Program-made: the position numbers and the translations under genes
Part shown: in pieces, positions 3,573-24,262 of the stretch
How positions within the stretch are numbered: the first letter of the stretch is position 1
Layout of the letters: the number at the start of each line of letters is the position of its first letter
The notes under the pieces: model-generated
The model's input: the letters and a program-made list of their open reading frames with translations, nothing else
Told to the model about the DNA's origin: nothing
Database searches by the model: none
IMG/VR virus record: IMGVR_UViG_3300011339_000662
Location: 1 to 29,131 of that record
Strand: one strand, 5' to 3'
Length of the DNA: 29,131 nucleotides
DNA from: a virus
Lineage: Duplodnaviria > Caudoviricetes

Positions 3573-3868
3573 ACCTGAGCTCGCCATTCCCGCCGCCGAG
3601 ATTGCGGATGCCCTACATTGCTGAGCATAGTGATTATCGTCGCGTGAGTCCGAGACAACGCCCGCCCGATTGCGGGATACGAAAACCCATCAGCCCGCAG
3701 TCTCAACGCAATTTCGCGCCGCGCTGCCATGAGGTCAGGGTATCGCCATGCCCCCCGGACCTGCGCTGGCGTCAGCCCGTGGCGTGCAGCCACTTCCGCC
3801 ACAACGTGTCGAGGGTTTACGGCTTCCCGCGAGTCGCCGGGTAGTGAAGCGCATCGGTTCACTATCAT
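3569..3868 (-). CDS. Stand-alone DnaA C-terminal (domain IV) helix-turn-helix protein (99 aa)
   Basis: VAEVAARHGLT...ARREIALRLR...SYPAIGRALSRTHATII matches the Bac_DnaA_C pattern (ARQIAMY...SLxxIGxxFGRDHTTV); start chosen at the ATGA overlap. Confidence 0.85.
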   Translation of the reverse strand: MIVNRCASLPGDSREAVNPRHVVAEVAARHGLTPAQVRGAWRYPDLMAARREIALRLRADGFSYPAIGRALSRTHATIITMLSNVGHPQSRRREWRAQV

Positions 3869-4212
3869 GACTTTTCGCATCCGGCGCATCTCAAGATACC
3901 TTGGTACAGCGTCACCAGTTCGGTCCGGTTGATGCCGTGGTGGCCCCAGAAGTTCTTCCCCATGACGTGCTGGGAATCCGGCCCTGTTCGGTGGTGGTAG
4001 CCGCATAACGGGATAGTTTCCTCATCCCTGCATTTCTGCCCGAGGCCTCTATCTCCAACGTGCGCTGCCTCGACGAGCCCCACGCAATCGCCGGTGGCCA
4101 TCAGCACGCATCCCCAGCGCCGAATAAAGTCAAGATACTCCGGATTCTGTACGGTGCCGCCAGCGCGGCGTATCGGTTTACTGCTTTTGCGTTTTAATGG
4201 TGTTCGCTTCAT
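3865..4212 (-). CDS. DUF968/Ref-like HNH-type putative nuclease (115 aa)
   Basis: MKRTPLKRK start; YLDFIRRWGC...EAAHV...GLGQK...IPLCGYHH; GGAGAGGT Shine-Dalgarno. Confidence 0.8.
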   Translation of the reverse strand: MKRTPLKRKSSKPIRRAGGTVQNPEYLDFIRRWGCVLMATGDCVGLVEAAHVGDRGLGQKCRDEETIPLCGYHHRTGPDSQHVMGKNFWGHHGINRTELVTLYQGILRCAGCEKS

Positions 4213-4471
4213 GTATCACCTCTCCACAGGTGTCGAATGCCCGGGCGGTGCCTGTAGGAGAGACGCCACCCGGATCATTCGAAGCAAGGATTCGAAGCCC
4301 CTGCCTATTCGTAGTTTGCAGCGTTACGGGCTGCTCCGTCAATAGCAAAATCTCTTCGGCCATCCAGTCTGCCAGTCCCATGCGCAGACCGTGTTGCTCC
4401 GGGTGCCCTGCCAGTAGCAGCGTAGCCGCGTCCTTCTGCTCGTCACGGCATCGCTGGAGGTCTGCGGTCAT
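4178..4471 (-). CDS. Hypothetical protein (97 aa); C-terminal half may be run-on through the RNA element
   Basis: ATGA overlap with the PAPS-reductase stop; first ~45 aa look helical and protein-like. Confidence 0.55.
   Translation of the reverse strand: MTADLQRCRDEQKDAATLLLAGHPEQHGLRMGLADWMAEEILLLTEQPVTLQTTNRQGLRILASNDPGGVSPTGTARAFDTCGEVIHEANTIKTQKQ
4213..4304 (-). ncRNA. Candidate cis-regulatory structured leader (anti-SD switch) upstream of the nuclease gene
   Basis: Small hairpin 4284-4304; long hairpin 4241-4273 with G-U pairs on the - strand; its apex CUCUCC(U)ACAGG is complementary to CCUGUGGAGAG over the RBS (4220-4230). Confidence 0.5.
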
Positions 4472-5322
4472 TCGCACAACCCATACTTGCTTTCGCACCC
4501 TTCCCGCTCATGCAGGATCGGGAACATCTGCTGACGGCCTCCGCGTGAGGTCCGCGCCCACTCCAGAACTTCATCAATCGTGTTGGTGTACTTTCCGGGG
4601 ACGCATGGTGCAAAAAACGTGCGGCCCGTTCGTGATTCCAGCCCGCGAATCTTCTCGATCATTTCCGGCCTGCGAATGTCCCAGTTCAACATGTCTTCTT
4701 TGCCGCTATTGATGCAGGGAGCGCACCCGACGCGGTTGAACCCCAGCGCGTATAGTGGATTGACTTGTTCGCCGTGCGCCTGAACGTAGTCGAAGCACAT
4801 CTGCTTTGTCCAGTCCGCGATGGGCGAGTGAAGGTCGCAGTCGAACCAGTCATCCCACGATTCGATTGGCGCGGCCTTCCGTGCTTCTGATTCGTCGCGA
4901 CGCACTCCAGTATATCGACAATATGCCACGCCTTCATGTACGCCACCGGGGCCGAACGTTGCATCGAGCCATCGTCGTTGCGGTTGCAGTTTCAGCTTCT
5001 CGGTGCAGAACTGCGCTTTGCGGGACGGCGGTCGGCCCTTGATGCGGACCATATCCTCGAACGTCAGGACTGCGCTGCCGTCCAATCCCTTCGTTTCCGC
5101 GAATCCCGGCGTCTTCCACATGTCCGCGACGATGGCGTTGGTTTTCACGACGGGGTGAACGTGTTCGCTGTACCAGTCGATAAACCCGGTAGTTAGCAGG
5201 TCTTCCCACCCGCCAGCATCCGAGTTCGTCAGGATCACATCTTCTGCCGGGTAGCGGTTCAGCACCCAGCGAGCGCACGCTTGCGAGTCGATCCCGCCCG
5301 AAAATCCCACTATATGTTTCAC
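4468..5322 (-). CDS. Phosphoadenosine phosphosulfate (PAPS) reductase-family PP-loop protein (284 aa)
   Basis: HIVGFSGGIDS PP-loop, FCTEKLK, GVRRDESEAR, PIADWT, NPLYALGFNRVGCAPC; GTG start overlapping the upstream TGA. Confidence 0.92.
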   Translation of the reverse strand: MKHIVGFSGGIDSQACARWVLNRYPAEDVILTNSDAGGWEDLLTTGFIDWYSEHVHPVVKTNAIVADMWKTPGFAETKGLDGSAVLTFEDMVRIKGRPPSRKAQFCTEKLKLQPQRRWLDATFGPGGVHEGVAYCRYTGVRRDESEARKAAPIESWDDWFDCDLHSPIADWTKQMCFDYVQAHGEQVNPLYALGFNRVGCAPCINSGKEDMLNWDIRRPEMIEKIRGLESRTGRTFFAPCVPGKYTNTIDEVLEWARTSRGGRQQMFPILHEREGCESKYGLCE

Positions 5323-5765
5323 GCGAACACCGATGCCCGCGCCAGTCGCCGCGCTTCCGCTTCCACCGCTTCCAGCCGATAGTGCGCCGCTAGGGCTGGC
5401 ACGATTACTGGCCCGACGTTTGACGGTGCGGATCCATCGTGCCGGCACTTCCACGCTGCTGAGGTATCAAACTCCCCGTAGACAATGATGTAGCCGGAGC
5501 CTCCACACCAGTTGCATTCCCGCGCCACGCTGGTAATGATCTCGTCATCCGGCGTCTGCTGGCACATCTCGTAAATTGCTTGGACGCTGGGATAAAACTT
5601 TTCTTGTTCTCGCAAGGCCTTTACCACCCGCGCCGCGTGGCCGATGCTTCTGGCGTTCTGCCGCAGTGAGTCTGTTCGAGCCTTCAGGGCTTCTTTGGAG
5701 TCTGGAATCCCCGGCATACCAGAGAACCCCTGCATGGTTTCACGTGCTGCTTTGAGGTCGATCAT
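5319..5765 (-). CDS. Putative replication accessory (helicase loader/inhibitor-like) protein with C-terminal Zn ribbon (148 aa)
   Basis: FYPSVQAIYEMC resembles the FxPsIAEI motif of G39P-like proteins; CNWCGGSG...C Zn ribbon; ATGA overlap at 5762-5765. Confidence 0.6.
   Translation of the reverse strand: MIDLKAARETMQGFSGMPGIPDSKEALKARTDSLRQNARSIGHAARVVKALREQEKFYPSVQAIYEMCQQTPDDEIITSVARECNWCGGSGYIIVYGEFDTSAAWKCRHDGSAPSNVGPVIVPALAAHYRLEAVEAEARRLARASVFA
5743..5765. repeat. 23-bp imperfect direct repeat, copy 1 (copy 2 at 6669-6691)
   Basis: cgtgctgctttGaggtcGatcat vs cgtgctgctttCaggtcAatcat, 21/23 identical; both begin the MIDLKAARE reading on the - strand. Confidence 0.9.
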
Positions 5766-6691
5766 GCAGAGACTCCATGCCTTGATGCGTGGATGATTGC
5801 CGGTCGTGCCCATTGCCGTTGAAATTGCCTCCACTCTGGAGACGGTCGCCATTTCTCAGCCGCCGGTGTCTCGGGTTGCCAGAGCATCGCGTGAGGCGTA
5901 AATCCAATCGAAATCATCTGGTTCAGTCGTTTAGTGGCCTCTGCAAATGTATCCTTCGGGTATCCGATCAGCACGTAAGCCCGAAGCCTGTGTGAGCACG
6001 CCGTGAACCCGGCTGCGATCATGCGCGATGCGGCACTTTCTAAAGTCTCAAATGGATCGCCCGGATCGTAGGCAAAAAAGCAACTTGGACGCGGTCGCAT
6101 GTCGGCCAGCAGCCCTACCTGGTAATCCTGCAAAGCCAGAGCCTCCAGGCCTCCGGTGAATTCTATCTGCCGCCCTTGCCGCGCCAGCATTGCGAAGACG
6201 GCCCGCACGTGCGGTTCAGGACACGCGAGAAGATTGTCGTCGAGGATGTTCCACCCGTCCGTGATTGGGATCGGTGTAGCCACGCCGTAGCGCTTCCATA
6301 CCGAGCAGAACCAGCAACGACGGGGGCATCCTCTCGACGTGAACGTATACCCAGGCTTGATGTATCTGCCCGGGATAAACTCTAGACTCGAATCTCCGAA
6401 CGCCACCCCGCCAACTTTGACCGGAGCAACGTGCTTCCATGCTTCAGCGAGCATCTCCGCTTTTGGCTTGTCGGCTGTGAATGTTACGTCGATATGCACC
6501 TCGTCTGCCTCATCGAACATGCCGGGAAATGGGAGTAGCTTGTCTTTCGGCGATCGCGCCATATCGTCCAGCGGCGTCGCTTTGGTTCGACGCGGAAAGA
6601 CACGTATTAAGCGCTTCGGCTCAGCACGGGTCAGGTCATGGCTGGTGATCTGGATCATGCCGCCCTCTCGTGCTGCTTTCAGGTCAATCAT
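5762..6691 (-). CDS. Radical SAM protein (309 aa; alternative start at 6658)
   Basis: TSRGCPRRCWFC CxxxCxxC motif, ILDDNLLA, YVLIGYP; N-terminal DEVHIDVTFT...VKVGG segment resembles a reduced B12-binding-like domain. Confidence 0.92.
   Translation of the reverse strand: MIDLKAAREGGMIQITSHDLTRAEPKRLIRVFPRRTKATPLDDMARSPKDKLLPFPGMFDEADEVHIDVTFTADKPKAEMLAEAWKHVAPVKVGGVAFGDSSLEFIPGRYIKPGYTFTSRGCPRRCWFCSVWKRYGVATPIPITDGWNILDDNLLACPEPHVRAVFAMLARQGRQIEFTGGLEALALQDYQVGLLADMRPRPSCFFAYDPGDPFETLESAASRMIAAGFTACSHRLRAYVLIGYPKDTFAEATKRLNQMISIGFTPHAMLWQPETPAAEKWRPSPEWRQFQRQWARPAIIHASRHGVSA
6669..6691. repeat. 23-bp imperfect direct repeat, copy 2
   Basis: See 5743-5765. Confidence 0.9.
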
Positions 6692-7215
6692 CGGCCCGCC
6701 TCACGCATCGCCCGTTCGATATCCGCTGCTGTGATCCGGTTTGCATCGGTCACGTTCACCAGTGGAATACTTGGCACCCGTACCGGCCTGCTCCGTTGCA
6801 TGTCCTTTGCCCGCGCCATCGCCTCGATTACCGGCCTGATACTAACCGCAGCCGTCAGGTCATCCGGCGTGATTCGCGGCCCTGCAATGTGCCGCACGGT
6901 CGCGCCGCTAAGTTGCAACGGTTCGGCTGCCTTCTCACTTGGGATTCCGTCGTTGAACCGTTGAAGTTGCGAATACGCTTCAATCCCATCTACCGGTTGA
7001 TATCTCGAACAAAACACCGCCCGCATCTCTCGCGGCCCTTCCCACTCGTTCCACAGCTGAATGCACCGTTTGGCTAGCCATGCCACCTGTTCGTTCGTCT
7101 GCGCCATCTCGCACGCCATCAGCACGATCTCAGCCCGTGCCGTCTGATCTGCCGGGAAAAACTTGAGCACGGAAAGCCGCGCCATGTCTGCCGTTGCCTC
7201 TTTCGTGTCGATCAT
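6688..7215 (-). CDS. Putative replication accessory (helicase loader-like) protein (175 aa)
   Basis: Immediately downstream of and coupled to the initiator (lambda P slot); N-terminus parallels that of 5319-5765. Confidence 0.6.
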   Translation of the reverse strand: MIDTKEATADMARLSVLKFFPADQTARAEIVLMACEMAQTNEQVAWLAKRCIQLWNEWEGPREMRAVFCSRYQPVDGIEAYSQLQRFNDGIPSEKAAEPLQLSGATVRHIAGPRITPDDLTAAVSIRPVIEAMARAKDMQRSRPVRVPSIPLVNVTDANRITAADIERAMREAGR

Positions 7216-8054
7216 AACCGCCCCTCATCGTACCGCTTCTGGAATTCCCGCTCAACCGATTCCACAAACCCGACCTTTCCGTTACCGTTCTCGCCAGATC
7301 GTGGCATTGAAATAAACGGCAGCGCCGGTTCATCTTCCCACCTCCGCCCGCTAATCCACGTCGCCGGGTGAGGTCGTTTGTCTGGAGGTCTGCTGGTCAG
7401 GTCCGGAAGCTGCAACGTCAGCGCCCGGAGAGCCGCCGCCCGAAGCTCTGGAGTTTTCAGCACGGTTCGCGCTGCTTTCAGGGCTGCGACCTTCGCCTCT
7501 CGCCGCGGAAAGATTGGCCAGAACTCCTGAGAAAACCAACCTTCCACCGGATCGATCACAGACACGGCGGCGCTTTTTGCCGCTGGTGGTGTGTGTGTTT
7601 TTGCTTTTGTATTTACTGGAAATGGAGACGGAGAAGAAGAGTTGCCATTTGGTTCATGTAAATCGTCAACCAAAAGTGAACCACCCTTCGTTTTTGGTTC
7701 GTGGTTTGCTTCACGTCTGGTTGCACCTGAACGCTTACCACCTGCGCTGCTTTTCTCACGCCAAACCTCTTGTTTGCTACGTTCTGCGAGAAGTCTGTCG
7801 TTGTATATGCGCCCGTCTTTTTGTCGAAACTTCGCCCTGATGGTGGCTTCGCTTTTTGACCATGCTGAGCCAAGTCTAGACAAAGTCTGAAGCGCTCTGG
7901 AGTCGGCTGGAAGGCCGCAATCTGGAGAAAGCCAAGCATGGCACAAGAGGCGAATATATGCACCCTCTTCGGCTGATGTCATAAGGGTAATGTCCATCGA
8001 AGAGAGCCAAGAATCCGGGTAGAATTGAAACGCTGGAGACTTGTACGCCTTCAT
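7212..8054 (-). CDS. DUF1376/YdaU-family phage replication initiator (280 aa)
   Basis: PAFQFYPDSWL...EEGAYIRLLCHAW N-terminal winged helix; C-terminal FWPIFPRREAK...PHPATWISGRRWEDE motif of phage replisome organisers. Confidence 0.88.
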   Translation of the reverse strand: MKAYKSPAFQFYPDSWLSSMDITLMTSAEEGAYIRLLCHAWLSPDCGLPADSRALQTLSRLGSAWSKSEATIRAKFRQKDGRIYNDRLLAERSKQEVWREKSSAGGKRSGATRREANHEPKTKGGSLLVDDLHEPNGNSSSPSPFPVNTKAKTHTPPAAKSAAVSVIDPVEGWFSQEFWPIFPRREAKVAALKAARTVLKTPELRAAALRALTLQLPDLTSRPPDKRPHPATWISGRRWEDEPALPFISMPRSGENGNGKVGFVESVEREFQKRYDEGRL

Positions 8055-8257
8055 CGCCGCAGACCTTGCAGCATGTAGCTGGTGACTTCATGCGCCGCCT
8101 CACGGATCACGACGCGCAGCAGCCGCATCAGGTCGTTGATGAATAATTCCACATCTTCCGGGCTCTGTTGTGGCGCGTGCTTCTCCACGAACGCCCGCAC
8201 AGCGCGTATAGATGCGTGTTCTGTTTTTGGCGCAGGTTGCGCCGTCTCGTTTGTCAT
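8051..8257 (-). CDS. Hypothetical protein (68 aa) coupled to the initiator
   Basis: ATG at 8257 after AGAAGGG; TGA overlaps the initiator ATG. Confidence 0.65.
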   Translation of the reverse strand: MTNETAQPAPKTEHASIRAVRAFVEKHAPQQSPEDVELFINDLMRLLRVVIREAAHEVTSYMLQGLRR

Positions 8258-8361
8258 TGTTCTGCCCTTCTGCCCAAGTTTTAGAAGGATGGCAGGGAGC
8301 CTTCCGGGCAGATGGAAGACTCCCTTGTGTGCCAAAATCCGTGTCGGGGATCAATCCGACA
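8258..8361 (-). ncRNA. Candidate structured 5' leader (hairpins plus possible pseudoknot) of the replication operon
   Basis: Hairpin 8342-8361; 12-bp stem 8294-8325 with loop AUCUGCCC complementary to two GGGCAGA copies (8269-8275, 8261-8267) next to the start codon. Confidence 0.6.
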
Positions 8362-8366
8362 AACCC

Positions 8367-8396
8367 ATTATACTCCGTTTTGCTTCAGCGTAGTAA
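8367..8396 (-). promoter_or_regulatory. Internal promoter for the replication genes
   Basis: TTACTA (8396-8391), 18-nt spacer, perfect TATAAT (8372-8367); predicted start coincides with the first leader hairpin. Confidence 0.55.
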
Positions 8397-8802
8397 CGTC
8401 CCACTCTTCGAACACCAGATAAGGGTACCGCTGCCGAAATAGCTTCGCCTTGAGCTTGTACGCTTCCGTCCGCATTCCTTTGAAATCCACCACAACGATT
8501 CGGTTATCGCGGATGAACCGGAAGTCGGGCACGTACTCCATAGCGCGTACCTTGCGCCCCGTGGCGTCAACGTAGCCGTCCATGAGGGTGTAGCGTGGTT
8601 GCCGCTCCAGGCTCTGGATTGCCCCGACCTTATGCCACAGATTCAGCAGCGCGAACGCCCTCGCCTCACCGGCAGAGTCAAACGTTACGCCGTCGACCGT
8701 CTTCTTCACCGCGTTGTACTTGTGCGCCTTCCTTTGCCCCGAGCCGGCCAGCGGTGATATACCGGCCCGGGTGCAAAGTTCTTCGTATTGCTTCTCAGTC
8801 AT
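8368..8802 (-). CDS. DUF1064-family PD-(D/E)xK endonuclease (144 aa)
   Basis: KYNAVKKTVDGVTFDSAGEA...LERQPRY...YVPDF...VVDFKGMRTEAYKLKAKLF is the typical DUF1064 signature. Confidence 0.9.
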   Translation of the reverse strand: MTEKQYEELCTRAGISPLAGSGQRKAHKYNAVKKTVDGVTFDSAGEARAFALLNLWHKVGAIQSLERQPRYTLMDGYVDATGRKVRAMEYVPDFRFIRDNRIVVVDFKGMRTEAYKLKAKLFRQRYPYLVFEEWDVTTLKQNGV

Positions 8803-11596: not shown

Positions 11597-11622
11597 TTGG
11601 TAGCCCTCCTACAAGCTACAAA

Positions 11623-11650
11623 TCTAGTATAGCATAACTAATGTTTTACT
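11623..11650 (-). promoter_or_regulatory. Leftward early promoter with operator-like box
   Basis: CATTAGTTATG overlapping extended -10 TGcTATACT; 24/28 identical to 112-139. Confidence 0.75.
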
Positions 11651-11654
11651 GCGG

Positions 11655-12020
11655 TTAGCGAAATCGCTGAACCAGTAGCCATGCAACCGCAGGCGCAATG
11701 CCAAGCGGTTTCCGCGTGCCGTTTTTGTCGAGCTCTCGCCGCTTTACCTCTGCCAAGCCCCTGTCCCGCGTCACGGTTGAACAGTAGACCGGTAGGCGTA
11801 CCCAGCTATTGTCGCCGCGTGGTGGTGTCAGCGTGTCGAGTAGCGCCGGTGCCGATTTCCCGACGCCAAACGCATCCTCCATGACGTCGCGGATAATACT
11901 GCTGATGCTCGTAGACGCTGTCCCGGTTGCCCGCAGCGCTGCCGCCGTCGCCGGCGGAATCTTCACGATCAGTGAGCAGGTGCCGTCCGGTAAACCAGAT
12001 GCCTTACTTTTTTTTGCCAT
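11655..12020 (-). CDS. Putative tandem ribbon-helix-helix transcriptional regulator (121 aa)
   Basis: Two strand-helix-helix-like units (SLIVKIPPATAAAL...SISSIIRDVM; VRLPVYCSTVTRDR...IAPAVAWLL); flanked by two copies of the promoter/operator box. Confidence 0.6.
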   Translation of the reverse strand: MAKKSKASGLPDGTCSLIVKIPPATAAALRATGTASTSISSIIRDVMEDAFGVGKSAPALLDTLTPPRGDNSWVRLPVYCSTVTRDRGLAEVKRRELDKNGTRKPLGIAPAVAWLLVQRFR

Positions 12021-12062
12021 ACTCCAACTATAGCATTACTAATGTAAACCTTACTGGAGTAT
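12019..12062 (-). promoter_or_regulatory. Promoter for a probably leaderless regulator mRNA, with perfect operator palindrome and flanking 8-bp inverted repeat
   Basis: CATTA-G-TAATG (12044-12034) overlapping TGcTATAGT; -10 ends 6 nt before the ATG; atactcca (12019-12026) and tggagtat (12055-12062). Confidence 0.7.
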
Positions 12063-18343: not shown

Positions 18344-18777
18344 TAGTTCACCACCGCATTCTTTCGAGTCGCCCAGTCGGGCAGGTCTTCAACTTCGCCG
18401 GCCATCTGCTTGTCCGGCCTGAGAGCCATCCACTTATCCGCCAGAGCCTTTGATTTGCGTTCGGCCCGATTGCCCTTGCCGAGCAGATCTTCTGGTGTCC
18501 AAGGTGTCCCGTCGCTGTCAAAGTGCGCGTTGTACAGGGTCGCTTGGATCGAAGCGTGCAGGTAGTTCTGGCGTTCGATCTGATCCAACCATACCTGCCG
18601 CAATGCGGAAAACTCCCGAGGCGTCAGGCTCCACAGAGTCGCCTCTGTCAAACCTAAACCGTCTCGGGAGATCCCGAACGCCCACACTGTCAGCCAGTCT
18701 TCTTCGTTTAGGCCAGCGCGGTCGCTTCCGCCGGAATCGCCTGCACTGAGATTTCCGCGTCCGGCACTGCTTTTTTT
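18343..18777 (-). CDS. Tail assembly chaperone frameshift extension (gpGT-like T segment)
   Basis: -1 frame is open from the slippery site to TAA at 18343; LGLTEATLWSLTPREF motif typical of T segments; no good independent RBS. Confidence 0.75.
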   Translation of the reverse strand, partial: KKSSAGRGNLSAGDSGGSDRAGLNEEDWLTVWAFGISRDGLGLTEATLWSLTPREFSALRQVWLDQIERQNYLHASIQATLYNAHFDSDGTPWTPEDLLGKGNRAERKSKALADKWMALRPDKQMAGEVEDLPDWATRKNAVVN

Positions 18778-24175: not shown

Positions 24176-24189
24176 TTTACCCTTTGCTC

Positions 24190-24238
24190 AAAACAGAAAC
24201 GCCGCGTTGACCCCTCACCCGAGTTGTCAGCGCGGCGT
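24190..24238 (-). terminator. Probable intrinsic terminator after the major capsid gene
   Basis: 13-bp stem (24199-24211 / 24226-24238, one mismatch) followed by TTCTGTTTT on the - strand. Confidence 0.65.
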
Positions 24239-24262
24239 CACCTTATAGCCGATTGCTGCGCC

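Follow-up and report, generated by a model that had tools for sequence, protein, structure and literature searches.

A variable hairpin loop and its duplicated target in a structured leader ahead of a phage replication-initiation gene

Layout and conservation of the site A leader

The window considered here is the whole 29,131-nucleotide (nt) stretch of the IMG/VR record IMGVR_UViG_3300011339_000662, a linear 29-kb virus record with an estimated completeness of 64%, which carries head, tail and early replication genes, most of them on the minus strand. Among the runs that contain it, those named for a habitat are metagenomes of rivers, fresh water, wetland or soil. Here, we report on two structured leaders of its minus strand, designated site A and site B. 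An initial annotation had suggested that they might be two instances of one class of translational switch, in which a long hairpin pairs through its apex with the ribosome-binding site (RBS) region downstream. Site A is a real, conserved, structured and covarying leader without an Rfam family. It stands ahead of a small open reading frame (ORF) that overlaps a replication-initiation gene. Downstream of its long hairpin lie two tandem copies of a word that complements the hairpin loop, a duplication absent from the initial annotation. The locus comprises the following features.

8368-8802, minus strand: upstream DUF1064 gene (Holliday-junction-resolvase-like), ending 7 nt ahead of the 5' hairpin H1
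8255-8396, minus strand: site A leader
8367-8396, minus strand: promoter-like element A, with a weak -35 at 8396-8391, an 18-nt spacer and TATAAT at 8372-8367
8343-8360, minus strand: 5' hairpin H1, 5 bp with an 8-nt loop
8287-8340, minus strand: long hairpin H2, with basal pairs 8340-8337/8290-8287 and 8333-8331/8293-8291 and a 12-bp core 8325-8314/8305-8294
8306-8313, minus strand: H2 loop AUCUGCCC, the specificity word, which matches GGGCAGA twice downstream
8269-8275, minus strand: target copy 1, GGGCAGA, 18 nt past the stem and 11 nt ahead of the AUG; proposed decoy
8261-8267, minus strand: target copy 2, GGGCAGA, in the Shine-Dalgarno (SD) position 3 nt ahead of the AUG
8051-8257, minus strand: 68-aa ORF of no known family (no PHROG or Atlas match), whose stop overlaps the initiator start (AUGA)
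7212-8054, minus strand: DUF1376/primosomal/replication-initiation protein (Pfam PF07120, E 6e-8; phrog_9327, phrog_270)

The leader of the window ends in the order GGGCAGA, A, GGGCAGA, 3 nt and AUG. Its fold has a z-score of -2.83 (1/200 shuffles as good) against -2.05 for the opposite strand. When local folds of the minus strand were ranked, the long hairpins of sites A and B both fell within the strongest 23. A scanner for stem, loop and downstream target found no loop match of at least 7 nt in 40 dinucleotide shuffles of the window minus strand; in the real window, it returned site A with two copies and one single-copy match within a gene at 8738-8771. Duplicated targets occurred at site A only in the window and in three relatives (G001, G002 and G003). 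The other match belongs to an 11-bp hairpin of the DUF1064 gene (8738-8771, minus strand), the stem of which is kept in G001, G003 and L050 and the downstream loop match of which is not.

The cassette was located on 16 other distinct contigs by protein and motif scans. Four contigs with the same or nearly the same cassette were set aside, and 14 cassettes were studied in detail. In the structure alignment, the H1 stem is 100% paired, with changes on both sides at 2/5 pairs, and its loop falls into at least three unrelated types; H1 is likely a 5'-end stabilizer. A reading of the 5' hairpins as a T-loop or tRNA mimic, for which the general T-loop consensus was used, was rejected since the loops vary. 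All 12 core pairs of H2 show changes on both sides in this alignment. Ahead of the 5' hairpin, TATA(A/G)T is present in 10/10 cassettes, and the best -35 matches 3-5 of 6 positions at a distance of 16-18 nt in the nine cassettes with upstream sequence; in the window, the TATAAT overlaps the stop codon of the DUF1064 gene and the predicted transcription start lies near H1.

Two runs complementary to the loop are found in 13 of the 14 cassettes, L067 having one. In all 13, copy 1 begins 15-19 nt past the stem and ends 10-15 nt ahead of the start codon, and copy 2 ends 1-4 nt ahead of it. The pairing of copy 2 is equal to or stronger than that of copy 1 in 11/13, and the repeat period between the copies is 7-10 nt, with exact 8-nt tandem repeats of the target in several alleles. 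The 14 cassettes carry nine different, largely orthogonal words. When one representative of each loop class was compared, loops matched their own targets over 6-9 nt (mean 7.6) and other targets over 3-6 nt (mean 3.8, maximum 6). The true assignment of loops to targets alone reached the observed sum, whether scored by length or by energy (1/362,880 permutations). This result rules out generic pairing between a purine-rich SD sequence and a pyrimidine-rich loop. In each of eight alleles, two copies of at least 6 nt arose in at most 0.08% of 20,000 shuffles of the downstream 45 nt. Moreover, the two copies are not identical in L064, L128 and L053, and both still match the loop, which argues for selection on both pairings. 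Comparative sequence data thus strongly support loop-to-RBS pairing in a structured leader at site A.

For an out-of-sample scan, the pattern was restricted to the 5' hairpin with its flank, and 78 loci came up. Of these, 11 (12 cassettes) were hit by the site A model, including three new loci, and at these the loop was matched twice in 4/4 cassettes, with two new words among them. The remaining 67/78 loci are chance matches, and L032, L036 and L073 are likewise chance pattern matches and not members. Two kinds of start-site variation were seen among the members. In L053 (~4996-5004), copy 2 includes an AUG that opens a 3-codon ORF, the stop of which overlaps the start of the small ORF; L064 (3115) and L066 appear to use a CUG behind a good SD sequence as the start of the ORF that follows the cassette.

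The cassette and its flanks differ in their degree of conservation. Between the window and L027, identity is 92% upstream, 100% over the promoter and 5' hairpin, 64% over hairpin 2 and on to the start codon and 94% downstream; between L027 and L028, the same four segments give 92, 84, 96 and 86%, and shuffled pairs average 49%. This contrast between cassette and flanks indicates that the cassette is exchanged as a unit. L049, L053 and L089a have nearly identical stems but three different words, and the window and L050 have a common word on different stems. L089 carries two tandem cassettes (oriented 843-966 and 1188-1310) with different words and a promoter-like box each; either one precedes an ORF with a similar N-terminus, and the initiator then follows. 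In contigs from a soil run, joints skip 8261-8387 and 8263-8336, which fits further alleles.

The gene context is also retained. In 10/14 cassettes, one ORF is followed by an initiator-like gene with a stop/start overlap (AUGA or UGAUG). The initiator comes directly next in L067 and after a short gap in L139, L089a is followed by the second cassette of its contig, and on a 1.6-kb contig, L052 precedes an ORF without an identified family. The downstream initiators fall into different, unrelated N-terminal families: DUF1376 (with the L064 match below cut-off), phrog_270, phrog_3729 and phrog_3926/10469, and the L139 initiator is 49% identical to that of G002, a complete relative of 44,370 bp with terminal repeats. 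The upstream genes vary and end 7-35 nt ahead of the 5' hairpin in 9/9 checked. In line with the proposed gating of the initiator, the cassette stays by the initiator gene; the frame that it directly precedes is the 68-aa ORF.

Searches outside these relatives gave little. Neither leader matched Rfam, c4-type motifs included (window at E<=5; eight loci at E<=2; five loci at E<=5), in line with the earlier suggestion of an uncatalogued motif. Comparison of both leaders with GenBank phages by blastn returned nothing meaningful, and site A had no match at E<=1 in plasmids. Literature searches gave no account of this element, nor of a two-register pseudoknot that sets a decoy against the RBS; subscription papers and the supplements of PMC5737381 and PMC2864571 could contain an account of the element, a candidate being the c4-a1b1 motif, for which the table of PMC2864571 gives no Rfam number. 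A search of 151 Acidobacteriota genomes with site A model R2, run without a positive control, gave 0 matches; the capsid protein had two distant matches in 401 Acidobacteriota genomes, and the sole match among genome contigs was 39% identical. The contigs of RNA run X20 (share 0.12) are short, none among those listed covers site A, and the run counts neither way.

Site B and its relation to site A

Site B precedes varied genes and has the following features.

4210-4342, minus strand: site B leader
4313-4342, minus strand: promoter-like element B, TTGACG, 18 nt, CAAACT
4283-4305, minus strand: 5' hairpin with loop CUUCGAA, replaced by an unrelated hairpin in G002
4233-4282, minus strand: long hairpin, 20 bp and interrupted, with loop CUCCUAC at 4260-4254
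4217-4232, minus strand: RBS hairpin of 5 bp with the SD sequence in its loop and 3' arm, abutting the long hairpin
4178-4471, minus strand: upstream ORF (MTADLQ...), spanning promoter B and the entire leader
3865-4212, minus strand: 115-aa DUF968/HNH-like ORF (PF06147 at E 1e-3, below cut-off; phrog_1588 at E 7e-10; HNH PHROGs at E ~1e-3)

The site B fold has a z-score of -4.46 (0/200 shuffles as good; opposite strand -1.99). In an alignment of the window with seven distinct relatives' sequences, the stems covary to a moderate degree, with changes on both sides at 8/27 pairs (1/500 shuffles), the loop CUCCUAC is invariant in 8/8 rows, and an RBS hairpin is predicted in 7/7 folded alleles despite differing sequence. 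The stem-loop-target scanner is blind to this site because its stem is interrupted. Site B is real, and it is more ordinary than site A, which stands out by unusually strong covariation and by a duplicated target that changes quickly. In the window, the computed pairing of apex and RBS hairpin amounts to -18.9 kcal/mol (0/3000 shuffles); five other alleles do not exceed their shuffles in this match (P 0.11-0.47). Allele-specific covariation was absent (226/720 permutations over six alleles, with L053 and L004 left out as near-duplicates). In the window and in L002-L007, site B is followed by an HNH-like gene; L040 and G002 have a helicase-methylase in this place, and L053 has a small ORF.

The upstream frame, which is conserved, runs through promoter B and the first hairpin. 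In 6/9 rows, it ends at a UGA or UAA in the basal part of the long hairpin's 5' strand, and in 3/9 rows, those with the window's allele, it reads through the leader. On transcripts from promoter B, the RBS hairpin and the invariant anti-SD loop would damp translation, whereas ribosomes on the upstream ORF would melt the leader structure on read-through transcripts. Translation of the upstream ORF could then act as the trigger, much as the leader peptide does in ColIb-P9. In design, site B is probably a less elaborate counterpart of site A with a single target. The complement of its loop (GUAGGAG or UAGGAG) also forms the SD sequence at 11611, 10231 and 19553 (minus strand) of the window and is kept there in G001 and G003. 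Its occurrence at these three other genes is probably the use of a strong SD sequence, and trans targets are possible.

How far sites A and B belong together can now be stated. Both have, on the minus strand, the 5' hairpin, the long hairpin with a pyrimidine loop and the loop-complementary sequence downstream that the initial annotation had described. The complementarity of apex and target within each site was borne out at site A, where nine words covary, but at site B it is special only in the window's allele; the chance estimates divide in the same way, with 0/40 shuffles of the minus strand giving a match of at least 7 nt, as seen at site A, and five other alleles at chance level at site B. 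Allele-specific covariation is seen at site A (1/362,880 permutations) and not at site B (226/720). Covariance models find site A in relatives but do not cross-match the two sites: the A models miss B, and the B model scores the G002 site A at 12 bits (E 2.5, 0.57), which is chance level, as this top non-member of one search was equalled by chance matches with filters off. A single shared class is not supported by these results. A common trans factor acting on GAUCC or GAAUCC likewise finds no support, given that GAUCC is missing from the H1 loop of 6/14 site A cassettes and that the hairpin of G002 site B is unrelated. The nuclease gating proposed for site B is not supported, as the next gene varies among relatives; in the window, this gene has only a weak HNH/DUF968 likeness (E ~1e-3). 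The spacer of ~10-30 nt is not there at site B, the RBS hairpin abutting the long hairpin. Both promoter-like elements are conserved in relatives, with TTGAC-18-CANNNT retained across varied spacers in all six B sequences, of seven, that reach far enough; neither passes the consensus promoter scan, so that promoters A and B rest on this conservation. We count sites A and B as analogous designs without a common 5'-hairpin factor. Since L067 joins the promoter and 5' hairpin of site A to a B-like RBS hairpin, the two may nonetheless be kin.

Several other features of the window and its relatives were recorded. A 17-nt near-palindromic repeat (11628-11644 and 12029-12045, plus strand) flanks a 121-aa ORF (11655-12020), with a similar stretch near 112-145. 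The Atlas look-alikes of this ORF include ParG/RHH clusters (with the family on 22-28% of members, a lead only), and its product could be a repressor that regulates itself through operators. Strong long hairpins lie at 18606-18675 and 24185-24249 (minus strand) in the structural region; one is at the junction of tail chaperone and tape measure, where a frameshift signal is usual, and the other follows the capsid gene. Over 4468-6691, the PAPS-reductase and radical-SAM genes are inserts that are absent from close relatives, and a 26-nt repeat (5740-5765 and 6666-6691) bounds the radical-SAM insert. In G002 (L056 17409-19747, L057 2-2318), glycosyltransferase, cupin and RmlD/methyltransferase genes lie between terminase and portal.

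Candidate mechanisms for site A

We propose, with about even confidence, that site A acts in cis as a two-register pseudoknot coupled to the initiator, in which the upstream copy of the target gives the on state and the RBS copy gives the off state. The H2 loop would pair with one of its two tandem complements: with copy 1 paired, the ribosome site would stay accessible, and with copy 2 paired, it would be blocked. Transcription would start from the adjacent promoter A. Copy 1, transcribed 7-10 nt earlier, would catch the loop first, and the loop would later move to copy 2, whose pairing is equal or stronger, so that each transcript would get a short translation window. Such a switch would ration the small ORF and the initiator, which are predicted to be translationally coupled. 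The geometry appears suited to an H-type pseudoknot in most alleles, with a pairing mostly flush with the 3' end of the loop and a 16-19-nt linker over a stem of 11-13 bp. The conserved structure, with changes on both sides at 23/30 pairs (0/500 shuffles), the covariation of the loop with both copies, the fixed spacing, the non-identical copies that both fit the loop, a copy 2 at least as strong in 11/13 and the gene context speak for this proposal.

Several points weigh against it. The target word of the window is a poor SD sequence (-3.6 kcal/mol), and the L067 leader has a single copy only. The alignment behind the pair count was fitted by the model, is partly out of register and includes one non-member row (L073). 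With copy 1 occupied, the computed cost of opening the RBS is lower in 8/14 cassettes and higher in six; because copy 1 ends only 10-15 nt ahead of the AUG, a pseudoknot at this position may already impede the ribosome. No input signal for the switch came out of the analysis, and a purely cis switch gives no reason for the words to diversify.

This last point is where a trans-acting small RNA of the CI, c4 or IsrK kind would have an advantage, as a trans self-RNA would account for the turnover, swapping and stacking of the cassettes. A short fragment of H1 and H2, cut in the A/U-rich linker, would bind the free target copy on new transcripts. Its level would rise with genome copy number, so that the initiator would come under feedback from dosage and co-infecting kin would be excluded in an allele-specific way; this would be compatible with cis pairing. 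The identity pattern (a cassette 64% alike between flanks 92-94% alike, and 96% alike between flanks of 86-92%), the three words on near-identical stems (L049, L053, L089a), the two words stacked in L089 and the largely orthogonal words all agree with it. Also in its favour, a tyrosine integrase was not found in the complete relative G002 (0/5 records; control positive 14/14); recombinase, ParA and cI-type domains were not found by Pfam in 49 of the 112 listed frames of its non-structural part. There is precedent for trans pairing in the part of PMC4825925 used here and for c4 specificity in that of PMC5320573. Nevertheless, the window scan gave no terminator-like site at site A or site B, none after H2 included, no processed RNA was seen in the contig-level RNA data, no upstream or remote allele-matched target for the loop was found in four genomes, and the fixed distance from stem to target points to a cis geometry, so that we regard this explanation as rather unlikely. 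We attach a similarly tentative and rather low likelihood to an RNA self-recognition code that would combine the two, with the leader's own loop filling one copy and a same-word leader RNA in trans filling the other, so that the initiator is off. If this were true, phages without an integrase would count their own copies and exclude same-word kin, and this would favour the rise of new words, the exchange of cassettes and stacks such as that of L089.

Three further readings were weighed. As a static damper, the loop would merely cover the RBS and keep the initiator low, the target having been duplicated by slippage and the alleles being neutral and shuffled by recombination. The exact 8-nt tandem repeats, a copy 2 that is at least as strong in 11/13 and the existence of single-target leaders (L067, site B) are what slippage and damping would give; the period that varies from 7 to 10 nt, the fixed position of copy 1 and the complementarity kept by the non-identical copies of L064, L128 and L053 are not, and we consider this reading unlikely. 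Control of the Inc type, by an opposite-strand antisense RNA whose loop bears the target word and competes for the H2 loop as in ColIb-P9, draws on the Rep context and variable hairpin of the I-complex plasmids (PMC4705826, in the sections used here) and on the fact that the opposite strand also folds (z -2.05). It appears quite improbable, given that the consensus scan found no antisense promoter candidate in 8/10 cassettes, that the two weak candidates in the others are not shared, and that no RBS-sequestering hairpin is conserved at site A. An element that works as DNA, with a hairpin or operator for replication start or repression, would explain the adjoining initiator gene and the H1 palindrome at the predicted transcription start, but at site A the G-U pairs favour the coding strand, target copy 2 keeps its place relative to the start codon and the stems have no common sequence; we hold this to be very unlikely.

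The cis two-register pseudoknot and its rivals touch the question of how the initiator is rationed, or relatives are kept out, in small phages that lack a recognizable repressor and integrase. With nine natural, mostly orthogonal words in a 120-nt cassette, a cis timer and trans immunity are distinguishable by reporter swaps, and the allele set could also serve as orthogonal translation switches.

Comparison with known systems

Control of a Rep protein by a pseudoknot between a loop and the RBS region is known from ColIb-P9-type plasmids, and the sections of PMC4705826 that bear on it describe a design similar to site A. In repZ of ColIb-P9 (IncI-alpha, with relatives in IncB pMU720 and IncL/M), a hairpin loop pairs beside the initiator RBS, and a small ORF is coupled to Rep. 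A corresponding pairing beside the RBS in a replication operon is predicted at site A. Nevertheless, there are distinguishable differences. The ColIb-P9 word is a single one of 4 nt that lies ~100 nt away and is exposed by leader-peptide translation, and its regulator is an antisense RNA (PMC4705826, same sections). The word of site A is 6-9 nt long, duplicated, 15-19 nt from the stem and highly variable; it would act on the RBS of the small ORF itself, and an antisense promoter is not conserved. An RBS-sequestering hairpin, as in the I-complex plasmids, is present at site B and in L067 but is not conserved at site A, where the mixed opening costs (8 lower, 6 higher of 14) suggest no conserved third hairpin to melt and give RepZ-type activation by such melting no consistent support. 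Homology of site A to plasmid inc regions was not seen by blastn against plasmids (E<=1) or in Rfam.

Among phages, c4 of P1/P7 (RF01695), c4-2 and P4 CI also have leader loops that are complementary to the RBS region, and the variable loops of c4-type RNAs confer phage-specific immunity, as far as the portions of PMC5320573 and, for the pairing, PMC4825925 used here describe them. Site A differs in having one recognition loop on a long hairpin, rather than a three-stem junction with two. Unlike in c4, both targets are downstream and none is upstream, and Rfam gave no match. The downstream gene is an initiator at site A and an antirepressor for c4; replication genes are, however, under the control of P4 CI. 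Gifsy-1 IsrK, in the portion of PMC4825925 concerned with it, resembles site A as a leader RNA with a short ORF that overlaps the regulated gene by AUGA, and the same IsrK sequence pairs in cis and in trans. However, IsrK pairs over ~30 nt, has a terminator and activates, whereas site A pairs over 7-8 nt and no terminator was seen. Site A is thus a variation on the theme of the rep-leader pseudoknot and c4, and a member of neither family.

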